DNA from: a virus
Taxonomy: Duplodnaviria > Heunggongvirae > Uroviricota > Caudoviricetes
Virus record (IMG/VR): IMGVR_UViG_2718218135_000001
Location: 49,251 to 113,250 of that record
Length of the DNA stretch: 64,000 nt
Reading direction: 5' to 3' (one strand)
Position numbers and translations under genes: made by a program
Part shown: piece by piece, positions 45,086 through 63,991 of the stretch
How positions within the stretch are numbered: position 1 is the stretch's first letter
How the letters are laid out: each line of letters starts with the position of its first letter
The notes under the pieces: model-generated
Told to the model about the DNA's origin: nothing
The model's database searches: none
Seen by the model: the letters and a program-made list of their open reading frames with translations, nothing else

Positions 45086-45163
45086 CACACCCCTCCCATC
45101 CTCTCTAGCGCCTGTACGAACAGATTAGATGCCTGTTCGTACAGTGATAAATTACGCACATCA

Positions 45164-45179
45164 GAAAACAAATTGTTTT
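45164..45179. promoter_or_regulatory. conserved intergenic motif B copy (GAAAACAAATTGTTTT)
   Basis: Palindrome 19 bp upstream of VWA gene ATG at 45198. Confidence 0.5.
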
Positions 45180-45197
45180 AACAACAAGGAAATTCTA

Positions 45198-47426
45198 ATG
45201 TCCAAAAAAACCACCAAAGCTGTACTGAAAGAGGTGCAGGATTTTCGCGACTGTGTAAAACGAGTTGTAGCGATGCTTTCAGGTAAACAGATACCTGTTG
45301 CAGAACGAGGCAATGAAGCATATGTCCGCTATAACCGGCGCGGCGAACCAGTGCTGGTAAACATCCCATCTATACCGGACGACGCGTCGCCAACCCTCAT
45401 GAACGCAGTGCGTGGTTTTCTCGACCATGAGGTGGCCCATATTCTCTTTACTGAACCGAAAGTCGCAATGCAGATGCGCGAAAGAGGAAAGGCTCCGTCT
45501 ACGGGGCTTTGGAATGCGCTGGAAGACGTTTTTATTGAACGCAGAATGGGGCAGGTCTTTAACGGAACCCGGCGTAATTTACTTGCAACACAGAGTCTGG
45601 TTATCGACAAATACTTCAGGAATAAAGTACCAGAAGCGGTTTTAGCCTGTCACGGAGACCAGCGTGAATTGTTTTTGAAATTCTTCCTTTGCCCGGTCGT
45701 CCGCGCCTGGGATGGACAAAGCCCCTTCATCGATTTTATGGAAGAACACTGGCGCCTTATCGAGAGGCCGGTAGCCTTACTAAAGGAGCATGGTATAGAC
45801 GTGGCCGTTCGCAATATGTCGAACACTGAGGATTGCGTGAAGGTCGCTGCTGCTATAGCCCAAATCATGCAGGATATGAAAGACAAGCCAGAGGGCAAAT
45901 TACCAGAACTTAAATCATCTGCCAGAAAGCCGTCGGAGAGCAAAGACGAGTCCGAGGAAACGCCAGAATCAGGTGACGAGCCGTCTCATGGTGACTCTGC
46001 ATCTAAGCCTGCCAAAGGCGAAGGCGATGACAAGGAAGAACGAGAAGATGATGCATCAGAAGAGGAAGATTCTGGGGATTCCGATTTGCCTGATTCGTTA
46101 GATAAGGACTTACCTACACACGTTAAAGATATTAGTGATACAGAAAGTAAATATACAGAAGCAGGCCACGAAGAGTCAGGAGACACCCCAGAATCCGATG
46201 CTATCGGCATGAAATCAAGTGACTCTGACACTGATGGTGATGACGGTGAGGACTCCGATACTGATCGTGGGGAAACTGAAGAAGACGTCGAAGGCAAAAA
46301 AAATAAAGATGGTGCGGAAGTGCCCAAAGACAGTGAGTCTGGCTTTGTTCCTGCGCCGGATGAAATGACTCTGGAGGAGGCGCTAAAGGCGCTCGACGAG
46401 ATGGAAGACGGAATCGGTGAAATGACCGAAGACGCACTGTCGGCCACCATCAGCAAAGAGCTTATGAGCGTCTCACCTTCTGATTATCGGCCATACGATC
46501 GATCATACGACTTTATCGGGTTGATTGATGGAGCCGAAGAGCATGTGAAGCGCACCAGAAAGACGTTCGGTGCAATACCAATGCACTCACCAGTCGACCG
46601 CTACCGTATGGTGCCAGAAGGCAGAAAACTCTTTGAACTGAAAATCGAAAAACATCTGTCTGCAGGCGTTTCTTCGACGCTGGCCAAAGACCTGGAGCGG
46701 GCCATCGCCAGCCGCAACCGAGTTCAGTTTATACCTGGTCAGAGGCGTGGGCGGATACATGGCGCGAGCCTGTATCGTCTGGCAATGAACGACGACCGAG
46801 TGTTCCGCAAGAAGGAAGACCATAGAGCGGTGAACGCGTGTGTCCAGCAGGTCATCGACTTGTCCGGCTCAATGGATGGCGTGAAGATTCAACTGGCCCT
46901 AGCCAGTGCCTATACCATTGCGGATGCTTTAGATCGTATCAATGTCCCCAACATCATCACCGGCTTTACCACGTTCGGTAGCCCAGATTATGAAACCAGG
47001 TCGAAGCGCGGGTTTACACGCTTCGAGGCGCTCATGCTGCCCATTATCAAAAACTGGAATGAGAAAGCAAACTCTCCAGAGATCCGTGCTCGCATGGGAT
47101 GCGTATGTGAGACGTTCCCACTGCTCAATAACGTCGATGGTGAGAGTGTCGCGCAACTGGCTACCCTGTTTGCAGGGCGAATGGAGGACAAAAAGATCAT
47201 GCTGGTTATGAGTGATGGGGAGCCATGTGCTACAGGTAGTGGATTCCATCAGCATTTACGAACCGTCACCAAAGAAATTGAGACCTTGAGCGACATCGAA
47301 CTGATGGCTATCGGCATTCTGACCGACGAACCACGGCGTTACTACAAAAATTACGCACTGGTTAACAGTGTTGAAGAGCTAGGGCCGTCAGTCGTCACTG
47401 AGTTATCTCGTATCATTCTTGGGTAA
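45198..47426 (+). CDS. VWA-domain protein (CobT-like) with long acidic tract
   Basis: MIDAS motif DLSGSMDG; Asp/Glu/Ser-rich region about 45950-46400; ATG at 45198 preferred. Confidence 0.55.
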   Translation: MSKKTTKAVLKEVQDFRDCVKRVVAMLSGKQIPVAERGNEAYVRYNRRGEPVLVNIPSIPDDASPTLMNAVRGFLDHEVAHILFTEPKVAMQMRERGKAPSTGLWNALEDVFIERRMGQVFNGTRRNLLATQSLVIDKYFRNKVPEAVLACHGDQRELFLKFFLCPVVRAWDGQSPFIDFMEEHWRLIERPVALLKEHGIDVAVRNMSNTEDCVKVAAAIAQIMQDMKDKPEGKLPELKSSARKPSESKDESEETPESGDEPSHGDSASKPAKGEGDDKEEREDDASEEEDSGDSDLPDSLDKDLPTHVKDISDTESKYTEAGHEESGDTPESDAIGMKSSDSDTDGDDGEDSDTDRGETEEDVEGKKNKDGAEVPKDSESGFVPAPDEMTLEEALKALDEMEDGIGEMTEDALSATISKELMSVSPSDYRPYDRSYDFIGLIDGAEEHVKRTRKTFGAIPMHSPVDRYRMVPEGRKLFELKIEKHLSAGVSSTLAKDLERAIASRNRVQFIPGQRRGRIHGASLYRLAMNDDRVFRKKEDHRAVNACVQQVIDLSGSMDGVKIQLALASAYTIADALDRINVPNIITGFTTFGSPDYETRSKRGFTRFEALMLPIIKNWNEKANSPEIRARMGCVCETFPLLNNVDGESVAQLATLFAGRMEDKKIMLVMSDGEPCATGSGFHQHLRTVTKEIETLSDIELMAIGILTDEPRRYYKNYALVNSVEELGPSVVTELSRIILG

Positions 47427-47521: not shown

Positions 47522-48757
47522 ATGACCGCTACTGCACTACAGCAAGAAGAACATTTGCCGGAAGCCATCGTCTGCAAGTGGTGTGGCAAATCCTTTCATT
47601 ACCTGAAATCCCATATCTCTATGGGCCGTTGCGAGAATATTCCTGAGTCTGCGAAGGGTCTGGACGTGGACGAAGTGGTGAAGATGTACACCTCTGCGTT
47701 TCCAGATGAACCAACGATCTCTCGCACGGCACTGGCCAAACTCAATGAGAAGCGTGCCGAAAAGCATTCAGGCGAAGGAAAAGTAGCGGAGATTAGCGCA
47801 CATCCGGGCTACGCAGGAACGGTCGAATACAAGACCGAACTGGTGGCCGCGCACGAGCTGCTTGGCGTAACGATCAAAGAGCTGGGTACACCACGCGGAA
47901 AACCACTACAGGTGACAGTCAACGTCAACACGCCCTATCCGGAGTTCGTACCTGAAGCGAAGAAAAACTATGTGTATGGCGACTTCGACCTGATCAAGGA
48001 CATCTTTATGATGCTGGAAATCGGAATCCCGGGTTATCTCTGGGGCCATGCAGGAACCGGTAAATCTTCTCTTCCTACGCAGCTATGTGCCCTGCTAAAT
48101 CGACCACTGATCCGCGCCCAGCATACGGCGTCTATGGAGGAAGCGCACGTTACAGGCCAGATCCTCGCTCGCGATGGTTCCACCTATTTCGAACCGGGTT
48201 TACTAGCGCTGGCGATGAAAAATGGTTGGGTTTACCTCGCTGATGAATATGACTTCGCGTTCCCGCAGATTCTGGGTGTGTATCAGCCAGTTCTTGAAGG
48301 AGAGCCGCTGATCATCAAAGAGGCAACTGCGGACTGGCGCCGCATCACCCCGCATAAACGCTTTGCCTTCATTGGCACTGGCAACACTAACGGCTCTGGC
48401 GACGAAACAGGTCTCTATCAAGGCACAAACATCCAGAACGCAGCGAACTTCTCGCGTTTTGGCATTGTTTCAAACGTGAAGTACATGAGTACGAAGGCAG
48501 AAGTCAACATGCTGGCTGAAGCAGGCGTCATCCGCGAATACGCCGAGAAGATGGTGAAGTTCGCGAATCTTATCCGTGAAGGTTATGAAAAGCATCAGAT
48601 TAGCCAGCCAATCGGGCCTCGTGAGCTGCTGCTGTCCGCCAAAATCGGAATGATGCGCGGTGATTTCTCTGCCGGCATCGAAAAGTCGTTTATCAATAAA
48701 CTTCCATCCACGTCTGCACAGGCAGCGCGTGAAGTGGTTCAGAAGATCTTTGGTTAA
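47522..48757 (+). CDS. AAA+ ATPase (MoxR/CobS-like) with N-terminal zinc-ribbon
   Basis: Walker A GHAGTGKS, Walker B VYLADEYD; CKWCGKSFHYLKSHISMGRC zinc motif. Confidence 0.6.
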   Translation: MTATALQQEEHLPEAIVCKWCGKSFHYLKSHISMGRCENIPESAKGLDVDEVVKMYTSAFPDEPTISRTALAKLNEKRAEKHSGEGKVAEISAHPGYAGTVEYKTELVAAHELLGVTIKELGTPRGKPLQVTVNVNTPYPEFVPEAKKNYVYGDFDLIKDIFMMLEIGIPGYLWGHAGTGKSSLPTQLCALLNRPLIRAQHTASMEEAHVTGQILARDGSTYFEPGLLALAMKNGWVYLADEYDFAFPQILGVYQPVLEGEPLIIKEATADWRRITPHKRFAFIGTGNTNGSGDETGLYQGTNIQNAANFSRFGIVSNVKYMSTKAEVNMLAEAGVIREYAEKMVKFANLIREGYEKHQISQPIGPRELLLSAKIGMMRGDFSAGIEKSFINKLPSTSAQAAREVVQKIFG

Positions 48758-48937: not shown

Positions 48938-51900
48938 ATGAAGGCTCTGATGGTCAGAACTGACTTCTCCCTGGGAGAGTCAGCTCTAAAAGCAGAAAAC
49001 GCGGTGAAAATCGCGAGAGACGCTGGCTACACCGCTGTCATTTCCGCTGACAGCATGAACATTGCCAGTGTGATCCCCCTGCAGCGTGCCGCTGGCGACG
49101 ACATGGCGGTTATTTGTGGTGTTAAGCTGAATGTGGTCGACGATCCGACATACGAGCATCGCGCCCGCCTGGCGAAAGAGTCAGGAGGATGTATGGAATC
49201 ATTGGTGCGTGATCGAAGCTACTGCTTCACGGCACTGATAAAGAATGAGCAAGGTTATCGCGACGTGTGCGAACTGATGACCTTAGCCAACAAGCGCGAG
49301 CAATTCTACTTTGTTCCGCGTCTGGCACTTGACCAGCTGGCGGCCGCATATGCCAAAGGCAACATCATCCTGCTGACGTCCGACATTGGCAGTGTATTCC
49401 AGCGCCGGGACTTCGCAAAGATTATCGGGACGCTGGTGACAGCTGGAGGACGCGATAACTTCTACAGCGTGGTTTATCCGCACCCTACCCCATTCTACGA
49501 CCAGATTAACGTCCGGGCGATGAAAGTGGCGAGCGCACTGAAAATAGAGCCAGTGGCGTTCTATCCCGCTTATTACGAAGCGATCGACGACGCTGACATT
49601 AAAGACATTGCGCACATGGTTACGAACAACATCAAAATCGACCAGCCGCATCGTCTGCGCATCCCCCACCAGCGAGATAACGCTGTTAATGGTCGTCGCC
49701 ATCTCCTTGAAGCGCTGAAAGCCTTCTCCGTTCGCATGGGCGTACCGGTAACAGCTGCAATGGTCTCAACAACGCAGGACACCATTATTGAAGCCTGCAC
49801 ATGGCGCTGGCATGAACTGCCACCAGCACTGCCCAAGATGGCAGACGACGAGCCTGCAACGCTGATGAAGCTGGCTGTCGCGGGGCTACGCAAGCGTCTA
49901 ACTACTAAAGAGTTTGGCTACACACCACCGGCTTCTGAGCACCGAGTGTATGTTGAGCGACTGAAGTACGAAATGGACACACTGACCCGTCTGGGCTTCT
50001 GTGGCTACTTCCTGATGGTACGCGATCTGATGAATCACAGCCGTGAAACAGGAATACCGGTTGGGCCAGGTCGTGGTTCCTCTGCCGGTTCTCTGGTGGC
50101 GTGGTGCATAGGCATAACCAACGTCGATCCTATCCGTCACGGTCTTCTGTTTGAGCGTTTCATCAACCCTGAACGTCTTGACTTACCGGATGCGGATCTG
50201 GACTTCAGCCAGGCACGTCGTCATGAGGTGATCGAGTATCTGAATGAACACTATGGCGAAGATTACGTTGCCGGTATTCCAAACTTCACCTATCTGGGCG
50301 CCGCTTCTGCGCTGCGAGACACTGCGCGTATTTACGGTGTCGACGCTGCGGATATGTCGGTATCCAAAGAGTTCAAGAATCTGGAAGACGATAGCCTGTC
50401 TCTGGAAGAGCTGCGCGAGCAACTGGCCAGCCTGGACAAATACGCCACGAAAAACCCGGAAGCGTTCAAAGCGGCGTGTAAGCTGCAAAGCCTGATGCGT
50501 GGTTTTGGTCGTCACGCTGCGGGGATGATCGTCGCTGGCGTTCCACTGGTAGAGCGCACGCCCGTCGAGCTGCGTGGCAACGCTCGCTGTATTGCGTTCG
50601 ATAAACGTTACTGCGAGGCGATGGGGCTGATTAAGCTGGACGTTCTCGGTCTGGCAACGCTCGATCTGCTGGATAGCGCGAAACGCTACATCAAAGAGAG
50701 TACCGGGGAAGACATCAATCTCGATGCTATTCCACTGGACGATCGTAAGGTTCTGGATGGGTTCGCTGCAGGGTACACGCAGGGCGTATTCCAGCTGGAG
50801 TCCGGCCCCATGCGCAAGCTGCTTAAAGATCTGGGCGGTGGCATTGAGCCAATGAGCTTCAAAACCGTTGTCGCCACGACCGCACTCTTCCGACCTGGCC
50901 CGATCCAATCCGGCATGTTGGACGACTATGTCTCCGTGGCCAAAGGCTTCATGGCTCCACATTCAATTCATCCGCGTCTTGAGGAAGTCACCCGGGAGAC
51001 TAATGGTGTTTTGCTCTATCAGGAACAAATCATGCAAAGTTCCCGAGTACTTGCCGGGTTCTCTATGGCCGAAGCAGACGCTCTGCGTTCCGCTATCGGT
51101 AAAAAGAACATGGATAAGATGAAAGCGATCGGCAGCGATTTTGTAGAACGAGCACAAGCAGGCTGGGTGACACTGTCACTCAAAAATGGAGGTACTGTAG
51201 AGGTTCACAAACACGCAAAACTGGATTGCTCAGACGGTAAGCGTAGAAGCTACAGCGAGGCTATTAGTGACGGCATAGACTACGTGGAGATCGTCTCTGA
51301 ACAAGAAGGTCTCAGTAAGGAAAAAGCCCAAGAAATATGGGACGCCTTTGAGAAGTTCGGTGGATATGCCTTCAACAAATCACACAGTGTTGCTTATTCT
51401 TTAATCAGCTATCAGTCTATGTGGTTAAAGACACATTACCCTGCTGAGTTCTTCGCTGCTGCGCTCACCATTCTGGGCGAGGATAAGCACCAGGGGCTGG
51501 TTAAGGATGCGCTGACCTATGGCATTCGCGTATTGCCACCAGACGTTAACGTGTCATCTAACCGAATTGAGATCCGCACGCTGGAAGACGGCAGTCAGGT
51601 TCTGTATGCACCATTCTCTGCTGTGAAAGGCTGCTCTGAGAATGGTTGCCAGGCCATCATGAGAGCGCGTGAGAAAGTTGGCGGCAAATTCGAGTCACTT
51701 GAGCAATTTGAGGAAGCGGTCGAGAAGCGTGCATGTAACAGCCGGGTACGCGAATCACTGCAAAAAGTCGGTGCGTTCGCATCGATTGAGTCTGGCAGTC
51801 TGCCAGCGACAGATCCGGAACGGCTGCGCGACCAGGCAGAGTTGATGGGTAATCTGGTGATCGACGCTGTAAAAGCCTCTCGACCGTTCGAGATGAACCC

Positions 51901-52444
51901 TAAGCGCTCTGCTGAAGTAAATGTACTGATGACGCGCATGGCGGCCGAAATGGGGCTGGGAGACGATCTAATCCGTCCAAGCATTGGTATTAAGCCAAAA
52001 ATCATGGTTATTCTGGACAACGCGAACGGCAATGATGGGCGTACCGGCTACTTCATGGAGAACGGTTACGACGACTTTAAGGCGAAGTTGCTTACTGCAG
52101 GCGATCTGCGTATGGGCGATCTCTACGTCACCGGCGTGTGCAAAAAGGTGAAGGACAAAGAGAAGGACTACACCAAAGACGAGATCGGTCAGTTCACCGA
52201 CTTTATGCGTGAAGAGATCAATCTGGTGCGTCCGACCTATGTACTGACGTGTGGCAGCCGGGCGACGTCGCTCTTCAACAACAAGAGCAAACCATCCGAC
52301 CTGGTTGGACGCAAAGAGTATCTGCCGGAGCTGGATGCGACCGTTTTCTACGGATTTAACCCGAATATCCTTTACTTCCGACCGGAAGAAGGAGAGCGAC
52401 TGGAGGCCATTCTGACTGATATTGCGGAGACGATAAATAAGTAA
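48938..52444 (+). CDS. DNA polymerase III alpha-type (DnaE-like) replicative polymerase
   Basis: GYFLMVRDLMNHSRETGIPVGPGRGSSAGSLVAWCIGITNVDPIRHGLLFERFINPERLDLPDADLDF matches DnaE palm signature; 1168 aa. Confidence 0.8.
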   Translation: MKALMVRTDFSLGESALKAENAVKIARDAGYTAVISADSMNIASVIPLQRAAGDDMAVICGVKLNVVDDPTYEHRARLAKESGGCMESLVRDRSYCFTALIKNEQGYRDVCELMTLANKREQFYFVPRLALDQLAAAYAKGNIILLTSDIGSVFQRRDFAKIIGTLVTAGGRDNFYSVVYPHPTPFYDQINVRAMKVASALKIEPVAFYPAYYEAIDDADIKDIAHMVTNNIKIDQPHRLRIPHQRDNAVNGRRHLLEALKAFSVRMGVPVTAAMVSTTQDTIIEACTWRWHELPPALPKMADDEPATLMKLAVAGLRKRLTTKEFGYTPPASEHRVYVERLKYEMDTLTRLGFCGYFLMVRDLMNHSRETGIPVGPGRGSSAGSLVAWCIGITNVDPIRHGLLFERFINPERLDLPDADLDFSQARRHEVIEYLNEHYGEDYVAGIPNFTYLGAASALRDTARIYGVDAADMSVSKEFKNLEDDSLSLEELREQLASLDKYATKNPEAFKAACKLQSLMRGFGRHAAGMIVAGVPLVERTPVELRGNARCIAFDKRYCEAMGLIKLDVLGLATLDLLDSAKRYIKESTGEDINLDAIPLDDRKVLDGFAAGYTQGVFQLESGPMRKLLKDLGGGIEPMSFKTVVATTALFRPGPIQSGMLDDYVSVAKGFMAPHSIHPRLEEVTRETNGVLLYQEQIMQSSRVLAGFSMAEADALRSAIGKKNMDKMKAIGSDFVERAQAGWVTLSLKNGGTVEVHKHAKLDCSDGKRRSYSEAISDGIDYVEIVSEQEGLSKEKAQEIWDAFEKFGGYAFNKSHSVAYSLISYQSMWLKTHYPAEFFAAALTILGEDKHQGLVKDALTYGIRVLPPDVNVSSNRIEIRTLEDGSQVLYAPFSAVKGCSENGCQAIMRAREKVGGKFESLEQFEEAVEKRACNSRVRESLQKVGAFASIESGSLPATDPERLRDQAELMGNLVIDAVKASRPFEMNPKRSAEVNVLMTRMAAEMGLGDDLIRPSIGIKPKIMVILDNANGNDGRTGYFMENGYDDFKAKLLTAGDLRMGDLYVTGVCKKVKDKEKDYTKDEIGQFTDFMREEINLVRPTYVLTCGSRATSLFNNKSKPSDLVGRKEYLPELDATVFYGFNPNILYFRPEEGERLEAILTDIAETINK

Positions 52445-53693: not shown

Positions 53694-54710
53694 ATGTCTA
53701 AGTCATTACTTGATCTGCTTAACAAGACCCGTGGCGATATTGCTTCCAAACGTGGCAATAACATTGATTTGACCCGTCTGAAAGATGGCAATAACTATCT
53801 GCGCATTTTTCCGAACAAGGACGATCCGAATGGCGTGTTCTTCCAGACTTTCGGTATGCACTACGTTAAGCATCAGAATGAGGAAGGCAAAGATGTAACC
53901 ACCGCCTATATCTGCGAACAACACACCCACGGCCACGCTTGCCAGCTGTGTGAGATGGTTATGGAAGGTCGCGCTCGCTTTAAGGGCAACAAAGCGATGG
54001 AAGAGCGCATTAATAGTATGCGTGCTACGCCGCGTTATCTGGTCAACGGTGTTCTGTCTGCGCGTGAAGACTTTGCGGACGCAGAGAAATGCCAGCTGAT
54101 TGAGCTGCCGTCTACGGTCTTCGACGATATCTGCAAAGTGATGTCCGAAGATATTGCGGACGATATTGGCAACCCACTGAGCAAAGAAGAAGGCTATGCG
54201 TTCCTGATTAAACGCACCGGTTCCGGTCGTGACACCAAGTACGACGTATCCCCGAAACGTAAAGTCTACAAAGGCGACATTCCTGAGAAGCTCTGGACTA
54301 CCCAACACGATCTGATCGCATATGCGAACCAGGCTGACGAAACTCGTTTGCTGTCCACGACTCGCACTATGGGTCGTCTGATTGGTATTGCGGCTCCGGC
54401 AGCAACTATGTCCTCACCAGCCATTTCTTCCGCTGCAAAATCAGCCGCAGCTGGACTGCCAGGCTTTGGCTCTATCACTGGTCATACGGAAGGCGCAGCT
54501 GCTGTCGCTACAGCACATACTCCGGCGCCAGAGTCCACCAGCCTGGTTGATGAAGAGATCCTGCGTGCCGCTGAAGCTGAGTTCAAACCGGAAGAAGCGA
54601 AAGCTCCGGAAGCCACCGAAGCCGCAAGTGCTTCAGCATCTGCTGCCGCTGCATCTGTACCAGCTGATGAAGGTCTCGATGACCTGCTGGCTGAACTGGA
54701 CGCTCTGTAA
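53694..54710 (+). CDS. single-stranded DNA-binding protein (T4 gp32-like architecture)
   Basis: His/Cys zinc motif EQHTHGHACQLC, Ala/Ser-rich linker and acidic C-terminal tail DEGLDDLLAELDAL; AAGGAG RBS. Confidence 0.5.
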   Translation: MSKSLLDLLNKTRGDIASKRGNNIDLTRLKDGNNYLRIFPNKDDPNGVFFQTFGMHYVKHQNEEGKDVTTAYICEQHTHGHACQLCEMVMEGRARFKGNKAMEERINSMRATPRYLVNGVLSAREDFADAEKCQLIELPSTVFDDICKVMSEDIADDIGNPLSKEEGYAFLIKRTGSGRDTKYDVSPKRKVYKGDIPEKLWTTQHDLIAYANQADETRLLSTTRTMGRLIGIAAPAATMSSPAISSAAKSAAAGLPGFGSITGHTEGAAAVATAHTPAPESTSLVDEEILRAAEAEFKPEEAKAPEATEAASASASAAAASVPADEGLDDLLAELDAL

Positions 54711-54770: not shown

Positions 54771-55715
54771 GTGAATTATCTCTTTGTGGACGGTAACAGC
54801 CTGGGCTATTACCACCAGCAATCCGACAAATTACACAACGGCGAGATGGAAGTTCAGGCGGTTTTTGGCTTCGTGAAGAACGTTCGTCGTTACGCCTCAA
54901 TTCTCCATGCCCGGCCAATGATCTTGTGGGATGGATTCAGCGACAAACGTCGCGACTTCTACCCGGAGTACAAAGCGAACCGCGACGACGACCCGGACAT
55001 GAAGAAGATGAAAGAAGGCTTTGCCATCCAGAAGCCGTACATCTTGAAAATGATGACCGCGCTGGGCGTTAACCAACTCATTGCAAAGGACGCAGAAGCG
55101 GATGACCTGGCTGGAATGCTGGTCTCTCGTCTGGCTCCGCAGCCGACCGTCGATCACATCTACCTGCTGACTGGCGATGGCGACTGGCTCCAGCTTGTTC
55201 GTGAGAACGTGAGCTGGATAAGCCTGCGTGAAGACGCCAAGCACAAGCAGGTGAACTTCGAACAGTTCGCAGAGCTGACCGGTCTGCCGACCCCACGCGC
55301 GTTTCTGGAAGCGAAAGCGTTGCAGGGCGATAACTCGGACAACATCAAAGGCGTAGGTGGCATTGGTGATGGTGGCGCGAAAGAGCTGCTTCATGAATGG
55401 GGAAGCGTGGCCGCAATGGTACGCGGCATTAACGACGGTTCCATTGTCATCAACAAAGGTCGCTATAAGACGGCATTCAACAAGCTGGCAAAGAACGCCT
55501 TCAACGAGAAGACGGGCTGCCGGATGCTCGAAGCCTTTAAGCGCAACATGATGCTGATGAACCTTATCGACACAAAATTCCCACCCAGCGAAATCGAGTC
55601 GATTAAAGGCGCACGCGATATGAGCGCCTTTGAACAGATGTGTTACGAGCTGAATTTCCGTTCGTTTCTGGAAGATCTGGAAGTGTTTGTTCTGCCGTTT
55701 GAGAGGTATTGCTGA
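54771..55715 (+). CDS. 5'-3' exonuclease / flap endonuclease (FEN, PolI N-terminal-like)
   Basis: N-terminal YLFVDGNSLGYYHQ and H3TH-like KGVGGIGDGGAKELL; GTG start with GGAAGGAG RBS. Confidence 0.7.
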   Translation: MNYLFVDGNSLGYYHQQSDKLHNGEMEVQAVFGFVKNVRRYASILHARPMILWDGFSDKRRDFYPEYKANRDDDPDMKKMKEGFAIQKPYILKMMTALGVNQLIAKDAEADDLAGMLVSRLAPQPTVDHIYLLTGDGDWLQLVRENVSWISLREDAKHKQVNFEQFAELTGLPTPRAFLEAKALQGDNSDNIKGVGGIGDGGAKELLHEWGSVAAMVRGINDGSIVINKGRYKTAFNKLAKNAFNEKTGCRMLEAFKRNMMLMNLIDTKFPPSEIESIKGARDMSAFEQMCYELNFRSFLEDLEVFVLPFERYC

Positions 55716-55983: not shown

Positions 55984-58323
55984 ATGGCAAAAGGCAAATC
56001 CGCACTGGCACTGGCGCTGAAAAAGAAAATCGGCAGCAATGACGAGATTCAGAAGGTCTCCCACTGGATTGACTCCGGTTTCCCTCCACTGAACAAAGCC
56101 ATTTCCGGACGTTACGACGGTGGTTTTCCGTGTGGGCGTATCGTTGAAGTCTTCGGGCCACCAAGCGCGGGGAAATGTGTTACCGCAGACACCATGCTGC
56201 TGACGGAGCGTGGAATTGTAACAGTGAAAGAACTGTTTGAGATTGAGGGGCACAAAGCAACATGCACTACTCGCGATGTAGAGCATAACGTTGGACTCAT
56301 CAATGAAAATGGCGTGATAGAGAAGACCTCACACCTGACATGGAACAACCGTCGCAAATTCAAGCGCATTAAGCTGGCATCAGGGGGTTACATCGAGGCT
56401 ACGTTCCGTCACCCAATTCGTGTGGTTGACGACTTAGGCAATATCGTCTGGCGGTATGCTGAAAAAATCAGTGTAGGCGACACGATTCCTTCAATGGTTG
56501 GCACACATCAATTCGGCGATCAGCACTTGGATGCCAATATCGCAAAACTGATGGGCTATTTAATTGCTGACGGATACGTGGCCTCTGAAAATTCTGTGCA
56601 TTTTTCTAACACAGATCCATTCATCAAGGATGAGTACTACCGCCTCATTTCGCTGGTATCAGACAAGATGCCAGTTACGAGAAAACATAACGGCTCGGAA
56701 GACCATGTGCTGTTTAGCAAAGAGGTGCGTTCGCTGCTTTTTAAAGAATATGGTCTGGAGTATGAGAAAGCTGCTGGCAAGCAGGTTCCGTTGAGTGTGC
56801 GTCGCGCCAATAGCGAGGCTCAAATTGCATTCCTTCGCGGCTACTTTGAGCTGGAATGCCACGTCAATGATGGTCGCTGCATTGAGGTTGTGAGCGCGAG
56901 TGGGCTGCTGCTACAGCAAATTCGCCTCATGCTCCTGAATCTGGGGATTACGTCAACTATCTCTGAAAAACACGTCGCAGGTTATAAAAACATATATTAC
57001 CGGCTGTCATTCAGTGGCTCTAACTACGACCTTTTCCTGTCAACGATTGGGTTCGAGTCTCCGGCTCGTTTAGCAGTGGCAACCAAACGGGACATTAGTT
57101 TTGACCGCACTTATTTAGGCTACGTTCCGCACATCAGCGGCTTAGTGAAATCACTCTACGAGTCACTCACCAAGACCTCTCGTAAAGACTACGTTCTGGT
57201 AGATCACGTTATTGGCCGCGGCGATCGTGTCGGAATAGACAAACTGCGAGAAATCTATGTCTCCTTCATTGGCAGAAAGAATCGTTTTAACGAGCATCTG
57301 TTTGCACAACTGGCAGCGGTAATTGACTCTAACTTGTTCTACGACGAAGTCGTGGCTATTGAGGAAGGTGAAGCACCAACGTTCGACGTAGCGATGCCGG
57401 AAACACACTCTTTCTGGTCTAACGGGATTATCAGCCACAACACATTCCTCGCGACGGCTGCGATGGTGTCAGCACAAAAACAGGATGGTCTGGCCGTATT
57501 CCTTGACCACGAAAACAGTTTCGACGTTGGTCTGGCGGTAGCGAACGGACTGAACGCCGACGAAGACGACGGTCAGTGGGTCTACAAACAGCCGGATACC
57601 TTCGAAGACTCCGTAGAGCTGATCGGCACAATCCTCAAGCTGGTGCGCGACGAAGAGCTTATTCCGGAAACAGCCCCTATCTGCATCGTAGCCGACTCTC
57701 TGGCGTCGATGGTTCCGAACTCGAAGGCTGAGAAGTTCGACAAGATGGCAGAAGGCACTGCGAAGGACAAAGATCAGCTGAACATGAACGACAACACGGC
57801 GCTGGCGCGCGCGACAAGTGCGAACTTCCCTACTCTGGCGCTTTGGGCGCGTAAGTACAACGCGTGCATCATCTTCTTGAACCAGGTGCGTACCAAAATT
57901 GGTGTGATGTTTGGCGATCCGACTACGTCTCCGGGTGGCGACTCTCCGAAGTTCTACGCGTCGGTGCGCATCCGTCTGGGTGCATCCGTCATGAAGGATG
58001 GCAAAGAGAAGATCGGACAGGACGTTGGCGCCGAGTGCATTAAAAACAAAGTCGCGCCTCCGTTTGGCAAATGCTCATGGAAATTCTACTTCGACCCGAC
58101 TCGCGGGCTGGACGTCGTCGAGTCTCTGGTTGAATACATGCTGGAGGAAGGATACCTGCCCAAGAGCGCCAGCGGGCGTGTGGAAATTGGCGAGAAGAAA
58201 TACACCAAATCACAGATCGTCGAGATGTACCGGGAGAAGCCATTAGCTGAAATCATTGCTGCGTTACAGGCAATAGATGACAGGCGCGAGAAGACATCAC
58301 CGACAGATGAATTAGAAGATTAA
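55984..58323 (+). CDS. RecA-family recombinase (UvsX/Sak4-like) precursor containing an intein
   Basis: Exteins give GPPSAGK|T Walker A, FLDHENSFD, IVADSLASM, PGGDSPKFYASVRIRL RecA-like motifs; AAAAGGAG RBS. Confidence 0.75.
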   Translation: MAKGKSALALALKKKIGSNDEIQKVSHWIDSGFPPLNKAISGRYDGGFPCGRIVEVFGPPSAGKCVTADTMLLTERGIVTVKELFEIEGHKATCTTRDVEHNVGLINENGVIEKTSHLTWNNRRKFKRIKLASGGYIEATFRHPIRVVDDLGNIVWRYAEKISVGDTIPSMVGTHQFGDQHLDANIAKLMGYLIADGYVASENSVHFSNTDPFIKDEYYRLISLVSDKMPVTRKHNGSEDHVLFSKEVRSLLFKEYGLEYEKAAGKQVPLSVRRANSEAQIAFLRGYFELECHVNDGRCIEVVSASGLLLQQIRLMLLNLGITSTISEKHVAGYKNIYYRLSFSGSNYDLFLSTIGFESPARLAVATKRDISFDRTYLGYVPHISGLVKSLYESLTKTSRKDYVLVDHVIGRGDRVGIDKLREIYVSFIGRKNRFNEHLFAQLAAVIDSNLFYDEVVAIEEGEAPTFDVAMPETHSFWSNGIISHNTFLATAAMVSAQKQDGLAVFLDHENSFDVGLAVANGLNADEDDGQWVYKQPDTFEDSVELIGTILKLVRDEELIPETAPICIVADSLASMVPNSKAEKFDKMAEGTAKDKDQLNMNDNTALARATSANFPTLALWARKYNACIIFLNQVRTKIGVMFGDPTTSPGGDSPKFYASVRIRLGASVMKDGKEKIGQDVGAECIKNKVAPPFGKCSWKFYFDPTRGLDVVESLVEYMLEEGYLPKSASGRVEIGEKKYTKSQIVEMYREKPLAEIIAALQAIDDRREKTSPTDELED
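56176..57441 (+). other. intein with LAGLIDADG homing-endonuclease domain, inserted in RecA P-loop
   Basis: Begins with Cys (CVTADTMLL), ends SHN followed by +1 Thr; LAGLIDADG-like blocks LMGYLIADGYV and FLRGYFELECH; length 1266 nt = 422 codons in frame. Confidence 0.7.
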
Positions 58324-58880: not shown

Positions 58881-59041
58881 CTTTATGGTGTCATAAACTT
58901 AAATCTAGCGCCGGGTAGAACAAGTTAATCGAACGATGTAGCGGCCATTTAGGCGTTACAGAAAGAACAGAATTTTAAATTTATAGTGAAGCCGTTGCAG
59001 CAACTTTGTGGGGTGCAACCAACACTGAACAGGAAAAGAAA

Positions 59042-61474
59042 ATGGATCATAGTGTACATAACAAGCTCATCTCATTTATATGGAACATTGCCGACGACTG
59101 TTTACGTGATGTGTACGTTCGCGGTAAGTACCGCGATGTGATTTTACCTATGGTGGTATTACGACGTTTAGATACGTTACTTGAACCCACCAAAGAAGCC
59201 GTGCTTGAAGAGGTCAAGTTCCAAAAAGAAGAGATGCAAGCCACGGAGCTTGATGATGAACCATTGAAGGCGGCTAGTGGTTATGTTTTTTACAATACAT
59301 CTAAATGGACCCTGAAATCCCTGTTCAACACCGCAACGAATAACCAACAGATATTACTCGCCAACTTTGAAGAGTACCTGCTTGGCTTTAGCGATAATGT
59401 TAAAGAAATCATTGAATGCTTTAACCTCAAGTCGCAAATTCGTCACATGGCCTCAAAGCAAGTCCTTCTTGATGTCGTCGAAAAGTTTGTTTCCCCTTAC
59501 ATCAACTTAACTCATGAAACGATCGAAGACCCAGATGGCAACAAGATGCCAGCCCTTACTAACCTGGGTATGGGGTACGTGTTCGAAGAGTTGATCCGTA
59601 AGTTCAACGAGGAGAATAACGAAGAAGCCGGTGAGCACTTTACACCTAGGGAAGTGATTGAGCTGATGACACACTTGGTTTTTGACCCAGTGAAAGAGCA
59701 GCTACCATTGACCATGACCGTTTACGACCCTGCGTGTGGTAGCGGTGGTATGCTCACTGAATCTCAAAACTTCATTGAAGAGAAATACCCGAACGACAGC
59801 CGAGATATTTACCTTTACGGCAAAGAGATCAATGACGAGACCTACGCGATTTGTAAATCGGACATGATGATCAAAGGTAACAACCCTGAGAACATCAAGG
59901 TAGGCTCAACCTTGTCTACCGACGAGTTTGCGGCTTCTCGCTTTGACTTTATGTTGTCTAACCCGCCATACGGTAAGAGTTGGGCGTCTGAACAGAAGTA
60001 CATTAAAGACGGCAGTGATGTGATTGACCCGCGTTTTAAGGTTAGCCTGAAAGACTATTGGGGAAATCTCGAAGTGGTGGATGCCACGCCACGTTCGAGT
60101 GATGGCCAGCTGCTTTTCTTAATGGAGATGGTCAACAAGATGAAAGATCCGAGCGTAAGTCCATTAGGCAGCCGGATTGCCTCTGTTCATAACGGCTCAT
60201 CGCTCTTTACCGGCGATGCGGGCGGTGGCGAAAGTAATATTCGTCGCTTCATCATTGAAAACGACATGCTAGATGCCATCGTTCAGTTACCTAATAACCT
60301 GTTCTATAACACTGGCATTACCACTTACATTTGGGTGTTGAACAACAATAAACCTGAGGCGCGTAAAGGTAAGGTGCAATTAATTGATGCCAGCTTGCTC
60401 TACCGTAAGTTGCGCAAGAACTTAGGTAACAAAAACTGCGAATTTGCGCCTGAGCACATCACGGAAATTACCGATACTTACCTCGCGTGTAAGGATGTTG
60501 AAAGAGCACTGGATGCAAACAATGATCCTGTTGGCATCGCCAGTAAGGTATTCAGCAATGACGATTTTGGCTACTACAAAGTCACTATAGAGCGCCCAGA
60601 TCGCCGCAAAGCCAAGTTTACTCAAGACGCAATAGCCCCACTGCGTTTTGATAAGCAACTTAGTGAAGTGATGGAGTACGTGTACGCAGAGCACGGCGAA
60701 CGTGTTTACGAAAAAACTGGCTACGGGTCAGATCAGAAAAAGAGCTTCTTAAAATCCATCGAGAAAGACATTCTTTCTTGGTGTGAAGATAACGACATCA
60801 GTCTCAATGCTAAGGCTAAGGCCAAACTGCTTGATGTGAAACACTGGCTGGCGCTAAAAGCATTGCTTGAAACTGCACAAACGCTGATGGCTGACATCGG
60901 TAGCATTGAATTTGATGACTTCAATAGCTTTAAAACCCAAGTTGATAAATCGCTAAAAGCCCATGCTATTAAGCTTTCAGCACCTGAGAAAAATGCCATT
61001 CTTCACGCGGTGAGCTGGTATGACGAAACCGCCAAGAAAGTGGTTAAAAAGGTAGTTAAATTAACGGGTGATAAATTAAACGACCTGCTGGAGCGCTATG
61101 AGTGTGAAGTCGCTGACTTGCCAGATTTTGGTTATTACCCCGTTCCTTCAGCAGAAGGCGGTAAAAAAGGCGAGTATATCACTTACGAGACCAATTCAGA
61201 CCTGCGAGATACAGAATCTGTTCCATTAAAGCAAAGCATTTACCAGTACTTCCTAGATGAAGTGAAGCCTCATGTCGATGAAGCATGGATAAACCTAGAT
61301 ACGGTAAAAATTGGCTATGAAATCAGCTTCAATAAGTATTTCTACCGTTATAAACCGCTGCGTAGTTTAGAAGAGGTCGCAACCGACATCATCAACCTAG
61401 AACAAAAAGCCGAAGGTCTCATTGCGCAGATATTGGGTGTTAAAGTGGCGGAAGTAAAAAAGGTTCAGGGGTAA
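59042..61474 (+). CDS. type I restriction-modification methyltransferase subunit (HsdM-like, long form)
   Basis: N6-adenine MTase motif IV NPPYG and motif I-like DPACGSGGML; followed by HsdS; ATG at 59042 preferred. Confidence 0.7.
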   Translation: MDHSVHNKLISFIWNIADDCLRDVYVRGKYRDVILPMVVLRRLDTLLEPTKEAVLEEVKFQKEEMQATELDDEPLKAASGYVFYNTSKWTLKSLFNTATNNQQILLANFEEYLLGFSDNVKEIIECFNLKSQIRHMASKQVLLDVVEKFVSPYINLTHETIEDPDGNKMPALTNLGMGYVFEELIRKFNEENNEEAGEHFTPREVIELMTHLVFDPVKEQLPLTMTVYDPACGSGGMLTESQNFIEEKYPNDSRDIYLYGKEINDETYAICKSDMMIKGNNPENIKVGSTLSTDEFAASRFDFMLSNPPYGKSWASEQKYIKDGSDVIDPRFKVSLKDYWGNLEVVDATPRSSDGQLLFLMEMVNKMKDPSVSPLGSRIASVHNGSSLFTGDAGGGESNIRRFIIENDMLDAIVQLPNNLFYNTGITTYIWVLNNNKPEARKGKVQLIDASLLYRKLRKNLGNKNCEFAPEHITEITDTYLACKDVERALDANNDPVGIASKVFSNDDFGYYKVTIERPDRRKAKFTQDAIAPLRFDKQLSEVMEYVYAEHGERVYEKTGYGSDQKKSFLKSIEKDILSWCEDNDISLNAKAKAKLLDVKHWLALKALLETAQTLMADIGSIEFDDFNSFKTQVDKSLKAHAIKLSAPEKNAILHAVSWYDETAKKVVKKVVKLTGDKLNDLLERYECEVADLPDFGYYPVPSAEGGKKGEYITYETNSDLRDTESVPLKQSIYQYFLDEVKPHVDEAWINLDTVKIGYEISFNKYFYRYKPLRSLEEVATDIINLEQKAEGLIAQILGVKVAEVKKVQG

Positions 61475-61480
61475 GTCGTT

Positions 61481-62818
61481 ATGATGAAGATTTCTGAAAT
61501 GCCGAAATATGACGATTATGTAGATTCTGGGGTTGAATGGTTGGGACGAGTTCCTTCTCATTGGCAGATTATAAGATTGAAAAATACGATCAATGGATGC
61601 GTCAATGGCTTATGGGGGGCTGATCCAAATGGTAAAGATGAATTGGTTGTAGTAAGAGTTTCGGATTTTGATGAGCAAAAATTGAATGTTTCTGATGAAA
61701 AACTTACTTATCGTTCCATACCTGAAAACGAACGGAAAAGTCGCCTATTGAAATTTGGTGATTTATTGATAGAAAAATCAGGTGGAGGCGATAAAACTTT
61801 AGTTGGTAGAGTTGTTTTGTTTGATAAAAGCTATACGGCAGTCACGTCAAACTTCGTCGCAAAAATGACTCCAAAAAATTGGGTAAACCACAGTTTTTTA
61901 AAGTATGTATTTTTTAGTTTATATAGTCGAGGTGTCAATTACGTATCTATTAAGCAAACAACAGGTATCCAAAACCTTGATGCGAATTCGTATTTAAATG
62001 AAGTTTTCTGTTTTCCTGATGAATTTGTTCAGGCAGAGGTCGCCAACTTTCTTGACAAGAAAACCGCTCTAATCGACGAAGCGATTTCGATCAAAGAGCA
62101 GCAAATTAGCCTGCTGAAAGAGCGTAAGCAGATCATCATCCAACAGGCGGTGACCCAAGGGCTTGACCCGAATGTGCCAATGAAAGACTCCGGTATGGAT
62201 TGGATTGGGAAGATTCCGCAACACTGGAAATTAAAGCCTAATAAGTGCCTTTTCAAGTTAAAAAAATCATTGGTAGGAAAAAGATCTGGAGACTATGAGC
62301 TTCTATCTCTAACCCTAAAAGGGATAATTAAACGAGATATGGATAACCCAGAGGGGAAATTTCCAGCTGAGTTTAATACGTACCAAGAAGTTAGTGTCGG
62401 TGACTTTGTATTCTGTTTATTCGATGTAGAGGAAACCCCTAGAACTGTTGGTCTTTCTAAATTTAACGGAATGATTACTGGGGCCTATACGGTTTTTGAA
62501 CTTGATGAGAGTGTTAGTAAGGAATTCCTTTATTATTTTTATTTAAATTTAGACTCAAGAAAAATGATGAGACCATTGTATAAGGGTCTAAGAAATACCA
62601 TCTCAAAAGAGACTTTTTTGAGCTTTAAGTCATTTATACCACCTTTGAAAGAGCAAGAAGAGATCGTTGATTTTATTGAATATGAGGTTAATAAGATAGA
62701 TCTCACTATAGATGGGATATCCGAACAAATTGATAAAATAAAGGAATATAAGTCTTGTCTAATAAATGGTTCGGTCACAGGTAAAATTAAAGTTACGTCA
62801 GAAATGGCTGAGCGATAG
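61481..62818 (+). CDS. type I restriction-modification specificity subunit (HsdS)
   Basis: Two target-recognition domains separated by conserved central helical spacer; AT-rich codon usage. Confidence 0.7.
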   Translation: MMKISEMPKYDDYVDSGVEWLGRVPSHWQIIRLKNTINGCVNGLWGADPNGKDELVVVRVSDFDEQKLNVSDEKLTYRSIPENERKSRLLKFGDLLIEKSGGGDKTLVGRVVLFDKSYTAVTSNFVAKMTPKNWVNHSFLKYVFFSLYSRGVNYVSIKQTTGIQNLDANSYLNEVFCFPDEFVQAEVANFLDKKTALIDEAISIKEQQISLLKERKQIIIQQAVTQGLDPNVPMKDSGMDWIGKIPQHWKLKPNKCLFKLKKSLVGKRSGDYELLSLTLKGIIKRDMDNPEGKFPAEFNTYQEVSVGDFVFCLFDVEETPRTVGLSKFNGMITGAYTVFELDESVSKEFLYYFYLNLDSRKMMRPLYKGLRNTISKETFLSFKSFIPPLKEQEEIVDFIEYEVNKIDLTIDGISEQIDKIKEYKSCLINGSVTGKIKVTSEMAER

Positions 62819-62827
62819 GACGCGAGT

Positions 62828-63991
62828 ATGTTCACGGTAAATCATCAGACCAATAGGATTAGTCCGGTTAAGACGAAGAAGTTCAGTGAGTTGGGCTTTA
62901 CTGAGCGCAAGCATCTTCAGGAGTGGTTGGCACACGAACCTTCCGCACTCGGTGAAGAGTTGTTGATTATTCAAAAAGAGTTCGATGGCTTTGATGACAC
63001 CCGTGAACGCTTAGATTTACTGGCACTGGATAAAGATGGCAACTTGGTCATTATTGAAAACAAGCTGGACGACAGTGGCCGCGATGTGGTGTGGCAGGCG
63101 CTTAAATATGCCTCTTACTGTGCCAGTTTAACCAAAGCGCAAATAGTTGAAATTTATCAGCAGTACTTAGACCGCTATGAGCCTGTCACAGGAGAGGTAG
63201 ACCTGTTAAATGCCCCTGCAAGTGCCTCAGCTAGAATATGTGAGTTTTTGGATGCGCCCGATCTGGATGAGTTAAAGCTCAACCTGGGTAACAGCCAGCG
63301 CATCATGTTAGTTGCGGCAAACTTTCGCAAAGAAGTGACCAGCACCGCGCTGTGGTTATTGGGTCAAGGAATTAGCATTGCCTGCTTCAAAATCACGCCT
63401 TATTCACTGGGTGAACAGCTACTGATTAATATTGACCAGATCATCCCAACGCCGGAAGCGAAAGAGTTGATGATCGGCATTAATGCCAAGGAAGCGGAAG
63501 AAAAAACCACCGAAGTGGTACTAAAAAACCGCCATACGGTGCGGCGCGAATACTGGGAGCGTGCCTTAGAGGCGTTTCAGAAAAGCGCTTGCCAACTCTA
63601 TAACAACATTAGCCCAAGCAATGATCATTGGTTATCAGCAGGCTCAGGGTTAAGTGGGTGTCCGTATAACCTGATATTTCTGCAAAAAGAGCTTCGAGTA
63701 GAGCTTTGTATCAGCCGTGGGGTTACCGAAGAGAATAAATACCTTTTTGACTTGTTGAGTCAGTCCAAACAGGACATTGAACATACTTTTGGTGCAGAAC
63801 TTGAGTGGATGAGGCTGGATGAGAAGAAATCTTGCCGTATTCAGTTTTCGACCAAAGCTGATGGGTTTAACAAAGATACGTGGCCCCAAGCGGTTGCGTG
63901 GCACTTAGAGCAGATGACAAAGTTAGAAAAAGCCTTAAAAGGACCGCTGCAAAAAGCGGCTGAGGCAATGAAACAGAAGAATTTTGATTAA
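62828..63991 (+). CDS. PD-(D/E)xK-like nuclease-domain protein associated with RM locus (DUF4268/NucS-like, tentative)
   Basis: N-terminal RERLDLLALDKDGNLVIIENKLDD fits D...ExK nuclease signature; immediately downstream of hsdS. Confidence 0.35.
   Translation: MFTVNHQTNRISPVKTKKFSELGFTERKHLQEWLAHEPSALGEELLIIQKEFDGFDDTRERLDLLALDKDGNLVIIENKLDDSGRDVVWQALKYASYCASLTKAQIVEIYQQYLDRYEPVTGEVDLLNAPASASARICEFLDAPDLDELKLNLGNSQRIMLVAANFRKEVTSTALWLLGQGISIACFKITPYSLGEQLLINIDQIIPTPEAKELMIGINAKEAEEKTTEVVLKNRHTVRREYWERALEAFQKSACQLYNNISPSNDHWLSAGSGLSGCPYNLIFLQKELRVELCISRGVTEENKYLFDLLSQSKQDIEHTFGAELEWMRLDEKKSCRIQFSTKADGFNKDTWPQAVAWHLEQMTKLEKALKGPLQKAAEAMKQKNFD

Follow-up and report, generated by a model that had tools for sequence, protein, structure and literature searches.

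The subject of this analysis is a polymerase gene in a stretch of 64,000 nucleotides, hereafter the window, from the IMG/VR record IMGVR_UViG_2718218135_000001 (Caudoviricetes). The window is part of an SSU5/pHCM2-type phage-plasmid. The gene at positions 48938-52444 encodes a C-family polymerase of the DnaE type (PolIII alpha) with an intact catalytic core. None of the nine metal ligands of the PHP domain were found to be retained in the alignments, the protein ends in a uracil-DNA glycosylase (UDG) fold with degenerate active-site motifs, and an exonuclease of the DnaQ type was identified in near-identical plasmids. The gene and its parts are listed with their positions in the window and their residues in the protein.

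48938..52444, + strand: dnaE-type polymerase gene; open reading frame (ORF) of 3507 nt, 1168 amino acids (aa), complete and unsplit
48938..49807, + strand: PHP domain, residues ~1-290; Pfam PHP, alignments, and AlphaFold2 (AF2) barrel
49862..51520, + strand: polymerase core of palm, thumb, and fingers; Pfam, catalytic D418, D420, and D568
51164..51307, + strand: beta-rich insertion of ~50 aa in the fingers domain, residues 743-790; a gap in Escherichia coli and distant relatives
51521..51790, + strand: (HhH)2 / beta-binding-type domain, residues 862-951; HHH_6; aligns to Thermus aquaticus (Taq) and Mycobacterium tuberculosis (Mtb) alpha
51833..51856, + strand: Q-A-E-L-M-G-N-L, candidate clamp-binding-like motif, residues 966-973
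51899..52444, + strand: family-4 UDG-fold domain, residues ~988-1168; degenerate active-site motifs

The protein starts with MKALMVRTDFSLGESALK, as quoted in a preliminary description made from the sequence alone. Its ATG is the earliest start codon downstream of an in-frame stop, is preceded by GAAAGG at 8-9 nt, and is shared in position by homologues as distant as 41% identity. The protein matched four Pfam families (PF02811, PF07733, PF17657, and PF14579), with PHP at residues 6-156 (46 bits), DNA_pol3_alpha at 309-571 (E=1.3e-72), the finger domain at 574-740 (E=2.3e-46), and HHH_6 at 862-951 (1.2e-16). The core of PHP, Pol3 (palm, thumb, and fingers), and (HhH)2 is complete. Among the NCBIfam models, TIGR00594 for the PolIII-alpha superfamily was exceeded with 646 bits over a cutoff of 434, while the protein stayed under every equivalog cutoff. 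The DnaE1 equivalog PRK05673 scored 692.8 bits against a cutoff of 1002, and PRK05672 for the error-prone polymerase scored 407.6 against 939. Solved alpha subunits of Thermus, Mtb, and E. coli were matched with HMMER in the PDB at E=1e-114 to 1e-124, the best at 8.7e-124.

The catalytic residues D418 (codon at 50189-50191), D420 (50195-50197), and D568 (50639-50641) align to D401, D403, and D555 of E. coli and were invariant in 13 relatives as well as in the 49-sequence alignment A3. The full-length AF2 model, with a predicted local distance difference test (pLDDT) of 91 and a predicted template modelling score (pTM) of 0.84, superposes with Taq, Mtb, and E. coli alpha. Foldseek matches to the model included 7pu7, Taq PolIII alpha (2hpi; E=4.5e-60), and E. 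coli alpha (2hnh; TMt 0.83). Together with the Pfam and NCBIfam matches, the three conserved aspartates bear out the preliminary description of the palm as DnaE-like.

An alignment of the PHP domain, for which Mtb DnaE1, the DnaE of E. coli, and those relatives that keep the PHP site intact served as references, was clean block by block. The ligands of Mtb DnaE1, namely H14, H16, D23, H48, E73, H107, C158, D226, and H228, agree with the aligned Mtb sequence and with the D228N proofreading mutant of Mycobacterium smegmatis. In place of the canonical series H H D H E H C D H, the window protein has M5, R7, E14, S39, K63, C96, D149, P210, and Y212. In both HMMER and MAFFT alignments, 0 of 9 ligands were retained, and the only conservative exchange was aspartate to glutamate at E14. 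A pairwise HMMER variant placed S148 opposite the cysteine ligand and a gap opposite H107, while the other positions agreed. The HxH pair is absent, as M5 and R7 stand opposite H14 and H16. The missing histidine pair had been pointed out before, and the loss proved wider than described.

A different start site was considered as a source of the missing HxH pair and was rejected, as the first possible ATG is already in use and homologues start at the same position. Since the annotated ATG is the most upstream start possible, re-assignment is unable to rescue the motif, and an intact PHP motif set after start correction is excluded. The barrel was modelled with a pLDDT above 90 and a TMt of 0.65-0.71 to the PHP chains of E. 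coli alpha in 4gx8 and 4gx9. Alignment and model together show a PHP domain that is folded and has lost its metal ligands. With the nine-ligand set missing from the alignment, the protein would not be of the PHP-proofreading type represented by Mtb DnaE1 and Taq alpha.

The same ligand loss occurred in most of the 54 full-length relatives, with R, E, T, R, D, and P recurring at ligand positions, and the DnaE proteins of phages nickie and RHEph10 likewise retained 0 of 9. Three of the 54 (P0223, P0236, and P0241) showed the complete series HHDHEHCDH in the same alignment. Because these three keep all nine ligands, the alignment is able to detect an intact site, and the loss appears secondary within the family. 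P0236 and P0241 are known from contigs of 4.8 kb and 10.6 kb, respectively, and no cultured phage close to P0236 was found. A degenerate PHP site is common in C-family polymerases and is found in every DnaE1 of alpha-, beta-, and gamma-proteobacteria, in every DnaE3, and in the majority of DnaE2 (PMC3919608).

Beyond residue 951, no DnaE model of Pfam or NCBIfam matched the protein, and the OB fold and the tau-binding C-terminal domain (CTD) are absent. The remaining C-terminus matched TIGR00758 at E=3.5e-8, although its 33.4 bits lay below the cutoff of 125.3, and the Pfam UDG match at residues 1051-1118 was likewise weak (14.9 and 18.8 bits, below the cutoff of 24.3). While a word-indexed search with this domain gave close relatives alone, an exhaustive search reached 136 representative relatives, nearly all of them C-termini of ~1100-aa DnaEs or ~390-aa C-terminal halves of split DnaEs. 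A profile built from 34 such relatives (A2) matched the family-4 UDGs of Sulfolobus tokodaii (4zbx), Thermotoga maritima (1vk2), and Thermus thermophilus (Tth; 1ui0) at E=1.8e-23 to 1.5e-17. The AF2 model of the domain had a pLDDT of 93.5 and was matched by Foldseek to TM0511 (1vk2) at E=7.7e-12 with a TM-score of 0.75-0.78.

The active-site motifs of this domain are degenerate. Motif A, GEAPG in family 4, reads LDNAN (1026-1030), the stacking phenylalanine (Tth F54) is replaced by M1040, the uracil-reading asparagine (Tth N80) by G1066, and the catalytic histidine of the HPS motif B (Tth H155) by N1141, which is followed by P1142. No cysteine was found at any position aligned with the four [4Fe-4S] cysteines of Tth UDGa. 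Single mutants of Tth UDGa lose k2/Km ~2500-fold in H155S, ~900-fold in E41Q, ~40-fold in N80A, and ~17-fold in F54A (PMC5387724). Because the catalytic positions are replaced and matching single mutations cost 17- to 2500-fold, canonical uracil excision by the domain is unlikely. Some distant DnaE-UDG relatives, among them P0147, P0156, and P0176, keep the C-x2-C-x-L...H and the later cysteine of the Fe-S site.

The UDG-fold tail is a more distinctive feature of the polymerase than the loss of the PHP ligands and was overlooked in the preliminary description. The architecture was noted for Yersinia pestis and Salmonella enterica by Timinskas et al. 2013 (PMC3919608), and in the GenBank record of RHEph10 the DnaE is annotated as 'uracil-DNA glycosylase-like'. 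UDG folds are also fused to many family-A polymerases of phages (BFVD), and it has been proposed that the UDG-like domains of phage polymerases confer processivity as a built-in factor (PMC3201878). A literature search for described DnaE-UDG fusions in phages gave nothing specific past Timinskas 2013 and Kazlauskas 2011.

At the DNA level, dnaE was 95% identical to that of Salmonella phage SSU5, 83-88% identical to other SSU5-like phages, and 98-99% identical to genes in many non-mobilizable E. coli plasmids of ~105-115 kb. The identity to SSU5 and to plasmids is the basis for the assignment to the SSU5/pHCM2 type. The gene was found in 720 plasmid records by megablast, and its UDG-domain tail in 817 by tblastn, distributed over Klebsiella, Escherichia, Enterobacter, Yersinia, Salmonella, and others. 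Proteins with 100% identity (P0007-P0010) are deposited as 'DNA polymerase III subunit alpha'.

The preliminary description had supposed that the phage may depend on a separate proofreading subunit and had seen no epsilon-like exonuclease in the window. No DnaQ-like exonuclease was detected within the 64 kb, with a best tblastn match of E=0.94. A profile of four DnaQ-type proteins run against all six frames of the window gave a best E of 1.8, compared with 2.5e-89 for the positive control. In Pfam scans of 24 ORFs from the replication module and its surroundings, the only exonuclease identified was of the 5'-3' FEN (flap endonuclease) type. The absence was thus confirmed by tblastn, the six-frame profile search, and the Pfam scans.

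A candidate for such a subunit was found in relatives. Plasmid NZ_CP101235, whose dnaE is 99.2% identical, carries a '3'-5' exonuclease' of 184 aa at 101791-102345 as annotated by the Prokaryotic Genome Annotation Pipeline (PGAP). The 184-aa protein matches PF00929 at E=4.3e-21, and its D8, E10, D98, H153, and D158 align with the catalytic DEDDh residues of E. coli epsilon. Its counterpart in SSU5 (WP_025670512) lies at 75676-76230, ~25.5 kb downstream of dnaE. As the window stops ~11.5 kb after dnaE and the distance in SSU5 is ~25.5 kb, the exonuclease is expected past the window end. The DEDDh exonuclease was present in plasmids with dnaE 98.9-99.2% identical, so that the supposed proofreading subunit is borne out in relatives by a DEDDh gene in SSU5 and in near-identical plasmids. 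In NZ_CP101235, the exonuclease sits in a nucleotide-metabolism block (L005, 100001-115200) with a P-loop kinase-like AAA_28 protein, dihydrofolate reductase (DHFR), thymidylate synthase, and a MazG/PRA-PH-like pyrophosphohydrolase, and an SbcCD-like pair of AAA ATPase and metallophosphoesterase lies near the block.

A homologue of the exonuclease was present in all 24 complete phage genomes with the DnaE-UDG domain, which comprise SSU5-like, Pseudomonas nickie-like, and Rhizobium RHEph10-like phages. In plasmids, the exonuclease was found in 728 records and the DnaE-UDG domain in 817. The respective numbers were 343 and 345 in Klebsiella, 89 and 91 in Enterobacter, 49 and 49 in Salmonella, and 25 and 25 in Citrobacter. 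The larger differences occurred in Escherichia with 194 and 218 records, a gap of 24, and in Yersinia with 0 and 63, while the counts of all other genera differed by a few records at most. The phage exonucleases stop ~10 residues past the Exo III motif and end in a short tail of the form G-[FLY]-[FV]-[KE]-x-P.

The insertion in the fingers domain is restricted to SSU5/Xenorhabdus-type proteins and has no Pfam match. Strands were predicted by AF2 at residues 743-748, 753-757, 761-763, 769-771, and 782-789, which suggests a small beta domain. Its end coincides with the split point of relatives with two genes. In contrast to the unsplit gene of the window, many relatives have a dnaE that is divided within the fingers domain. 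In Salmonella Typhi pTy004_01 (L006, 301-4543), an N-terminal half of 787 aa is followed by a free-standing ORF for a NUMOD4 HNH endonuclease and then by a C-terminal half of 374 aa (P0001). The C-terminal half carries the remaining fingers together with the HhH and UDG domains, and the split site corresponds to ~51300-51320 in the window. C-terminal halves of 340-460 aa made up 31 of 134 UDG-domain representatives, and all six inspected N-termini started at one site. Inteins were observed in the DnaE-UDG relatives P0165, P0202, and P0223.

The candidate clamp-binding-like segment at residues 966-973 lies just ahead of the UDG domain and is ordered in the AF2 model. Its family consensus is Q-x-E-L-[LM]-P-G-L, and R962 and Q966 are nearly invariant in alignment A3. 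In MAFFT alignments, the E. coli QADMF stands opposite non-conserved residues of the window protein. By manual alignment, we infer that residues 966-973 match the E. coli RAALMNSL and not QADMF, and a clamp role is not claimed for them.

A full complement of replisome genes, together with a CobT-like/CobS-like pair and recA, was identified on both sides of dnaE.

27562-28902, + strand: DnaB-like helicase; Pfam DnaB_C, SSU5 and plasmid annotation
28963-30174, + strand: DnaG/Toprim-type primase; Pfam DNAG_N and Toprim_2, SSU5 and plasmid annotation
39093..40415, + strand: ATP-dependent DNA ligase; Pfam DNA_ligase_A_M
45129-47426, + strand: CobT-like von Willebrand factor A (vWA) protein; Pfam
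47522-48757, + strand: CobS-like AAA_5 ATPase; Pfam, adjoins dnaE upstream
53694-54710, + strand: gp32-like single-stranded DNA-binding protein (SSB); Pfam gp32 at 1.1e-71
54771-55715, + strand: 5'-3' exonuclease/FEN; Pfam 5_3_exonuc_N and 5_3_exonuc
55984-58323: RecA gene with an intein carrying a LAGLIDADG homing endonuclease; 779 aa versus 358 aa in SSU5

The CobT-like/CobS-like pair is conserved upstream of dnaE, directly so in the window and also in SSU5. A cobS-like gene precedes dnaE in phage nickie (L007, 1-209), and CobT-like and CobS-like genes lie a few ORFs upstream of dnaE on the metagenomic contig of P0241 (L013, 186-3371), a relative with an intact PHP site. Three deposited proteins (P0094, P0099, and P0125) are chimeras of the N-terminal part of DnaE and RecA (PF02811 and PF00154), which presumably arose from dnaE-recA deletions in derivative plasmids. 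The cargo of the window, located at 32112-36856 on the - strand and at 59006-63991 on the + strand, includes a chaperone-usher fimbrial operon (usher and PapD-like chaperone) and an IS3-family transposase. A type I restriction-modification pair of HsdM and HsdS and a DUF4268/NucS-like protein were also assigned to these two regions.

The enzyme is read here, with reasonable but not high confidence, as the replicative C-family polymerase of an SSU5/pHCM2-type phage-plasmid, with a dead PHP domain, an exonuclease acting in trans, and a UDG-fold module without catalytic function. The PHP domain would be unable to act as a Zn-dependent 3'-5' exonuclease and may, like that of E. coli alpha, serve for structure or docking. 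The proofreader would be an exonuclease acting in trans and encoded by the element itself, the 184-aa DEDDh protein of the DnaQ family, host epsilon being the less likely provider. By analogy with the UDG-like domains of SPO1- and T5-type polymerases and with vaccinia D4, the UDG fold could bind DNA or have an accessory function, without catalysis, in the place of the OB and tau-binding region. Having lost the tau-binding domain, the enzyme would be uncoupled from the clamp loader and the DnaB of the host, which fits an element with its own helicase and primase. The polymerase would work with this DnaB-like helicase and primase as well as with the gp32-like SSB, FEN, and ligase.

Several points weigh against this reading. 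The presence of the exonuclease in this exact element is extrapolated from near-identical plasmids, and the association of polymerase and exonuclease is suggested by their co-occurrence, from which a physical link would be a further step. As gene order is shared among the three phage groups, the co-occurrence does not count as phylogenetically independent evidence. All 63 Yersinia pMT1-type plasmids have the polymerase without an exonuclease match, and the phage exonuclease has neither the C-terminal segment with which epsilon binds the PHP domain of alpha nor the QTSMAF clamp motif. In the UDG domain, D1027 provides an acidic residue at the position of the motif-A glutamate, and Y1063, T1065, K1069, E1093, and P1142 are near-invariant. 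As these residues persist, residual or altered catalysis is conceivable.

The Yersinia plasmids and the missing epsilon-type tether would both be expected if host epsilon (DnaQ) were recruited through the degenerate PHP domain, as in E. coli alpha, and the phage exonuclease served recombination or repair. The hosts are Enterobacteriaceae, whose epsilon binds an inactive alpha PHP (PMC3919608, PMC3664792), and the PHP fold resembles that of E. coli alpha in the alpha-epsilon chimera structures 4gx8 and 4gx9. However, in sequence the PHP domain is only weakly similar to that of E. coli alpha, the best HMMER stretches starting at residue 92 (4jom) or 183, and the same pair of polymerase and exonuclease occurs in phages of Pseudomonas and Rhizobium, hosts with a different epsilon. 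Recruitment of host epsilon is considered unlikely. A still lower probability is given to a low-fidelity or translesion plasmid polymerase of the DnaE2 kind that would lack a dedicated proofreader. DnaE2 makes up about two-thirds of plasmid-borne C-family polymerases, and OB and CTD are missing in some DnaE2 (PMC3919608), as they are here next to a dead PHP site. The model scores point the other way, with 693 bits on PRK05673 compared to 408 on PRK05672 (cutoff 939). The gene lies among helicase, primase, SSB, FEN, and ligase and is conserved in the virion-forming SSU5, nickie, and RHEph10. No imuA/imuB-type genes were seen nearby, where the neighbours are CobT-like, CobS-like, SSB, FEN, and RecA genes, and an exonuclease of the DnaQ family co-occurs with the polymerase. 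The model scores and the genes around dnaE led to the rejection of this error-prone alternative.

The C-terminal domain could instead be an active glycosylase for uracil or another base that is coupled to the replicase and excises or senses bases of the template or nascent strand. Such a role is suggested by the fold, which is near family-4 UDGs, and by the match of 34 of 34 sampled family members to Pfam UDG. Three common residues point in the same direction, namely an aspartate at the position of the motif-A glutamate, the proline that follows it across the wider family, and an acidic side chain at the position of Tth E47, as do the C-x2-C...H and later Fe-S cysteine kept in some relatives. 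The element also has thymidylate synthase, DHFR, and a MazG-like gene. In the window protein, however, catalytic histidine is exchanged for asparagine, uracil-reading asparagine for glycine, stacking phenylalanine for methionine, and motif-A proline for alanine, and no Fe-S cysteine is left. With the losses of 17- to 2500-fold in equivalent Tth UDGa single mutants (PMC5387724) and 33 bits on TIGR00758 against a cutoff of 125, glycosylase activity has a small probability. A more far-reaching proposal, which we regard as speculative and improbable as a whole, is that DnaE-UDG, the tail-less DnaQ-like exonuclease, and perhaps the CobT-like/CobS-like pair form a self-contained phage replicase unlike the Pol III holoenzyme. 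The UDG fold would then be a module for DNA grip and processivity or a sensor of uracil or modified template bases, the exonuclease would be docked by the dead PHP domain or by the clamp, and the enzyme could also assemble from two polypeptides, as in the natural split.

The observation made in the preliminary description is real and its interpretation is supported, while the gene, its family, and its architecture were already present in databases and literature. The present analysis adds useful annotations rather than a discovery, namely that none of the nine PHP ligands is left, that the active site of the UDG domain is degenerate, that a DnaQ-like exonuclease lacking a tail systematically accompanies the polymerase, and that split forms are widespread. 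The SSU5/pHCM2-type phage-plasmids are very common in clinical Enterobacteriaceae, and a C-family polymerase of its own is unusual for a plasmid. A polymerase with no intrinsic proofreader, a likely co-carried DnaQ-type exonuclease, and a UDG fold in place of the domains that couple to the host replisome would help explain how such elements set their mutation rate and stay independent of the host replisome. The view of C-family polymerases is unchanged by these results, which provide an example of two known trends, namely PHP inactivation with an exonuclease in trans and fusion of UDG folds to phage polymerases.

Among known systems, the DnaE-UDG variant 'DnaEX' of Y. pestis pMT1 and S. enterica pHCM2 (Timinskas et al. 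2013, Nucleic Acids Research, PMC3919608) belongs to the same protein family and element type. It has an archaeal-type (family-4) UDG in place of OB and CTD and is an extra plasmid-borne polymerase, as in the window, so that there is essentially no difference in architecture. That paper devotes one sentence to the variant and mentions neither the absence of every PHP ligand nor the decay of the UDG motifs, the accompanying DnaQ-like gene, or the existence of split forms (PMC3919608).

E. coli alpha and epsilon share with the window polymerase the order PHP-palm-thumb-fingers-(HhH)2, the three catalytic aspartates, and the lack of a functional PHP metal site. In E. coli Pol III, proofreading is carried out by a separate DEDDh exonuclease, and a similar exonuclease is co-carried with polymerases of the window type. 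At the ligand positions, E. coli alpha has R10, H12, D19, F44, D69, H83, G134, D201, and R203, of which five of nine (H12, D19, D69, H83, and D201) are identical or conservative, while in the window protein none is identical and E14 is conservative. Unlike E. coli alpha, the window protein lacks both OB fold and tau-binding domain and stays under the DnaE1 cutoff, and its putative partner exonuclease differs from E. coli epsilon by the missing C-terminal alpha-binding segment.

With the family-4 UDGs 1ui0, 1vk2, and 4zbx, the C-terminal domain shares the alpha/beta fold (TM 0.75-0.78) and profile homology (E=1.8e-23), whereas their GEAPG motif, catalytic histidine, uracil-binding asparagine, stacking phenylalanine, and Fe-S cysteines are missing and the domain is fused to a polymerase. 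Besides the window polymerase, viral replicative polymerases with a fused or recruited UDG fold include the SPO1- and T5-type family-A phage polymerases and vaccinia D4-A20-E9, and for such UDG folds a role in processivity has been proposed or demonstrated (PMC3201878). The window polymerase differs from these in belonging to family C, compared to A or B in SPO1, T5, and vaccinia, and in carrying the UDG domain at the C-terminus instead of the N-terminus.

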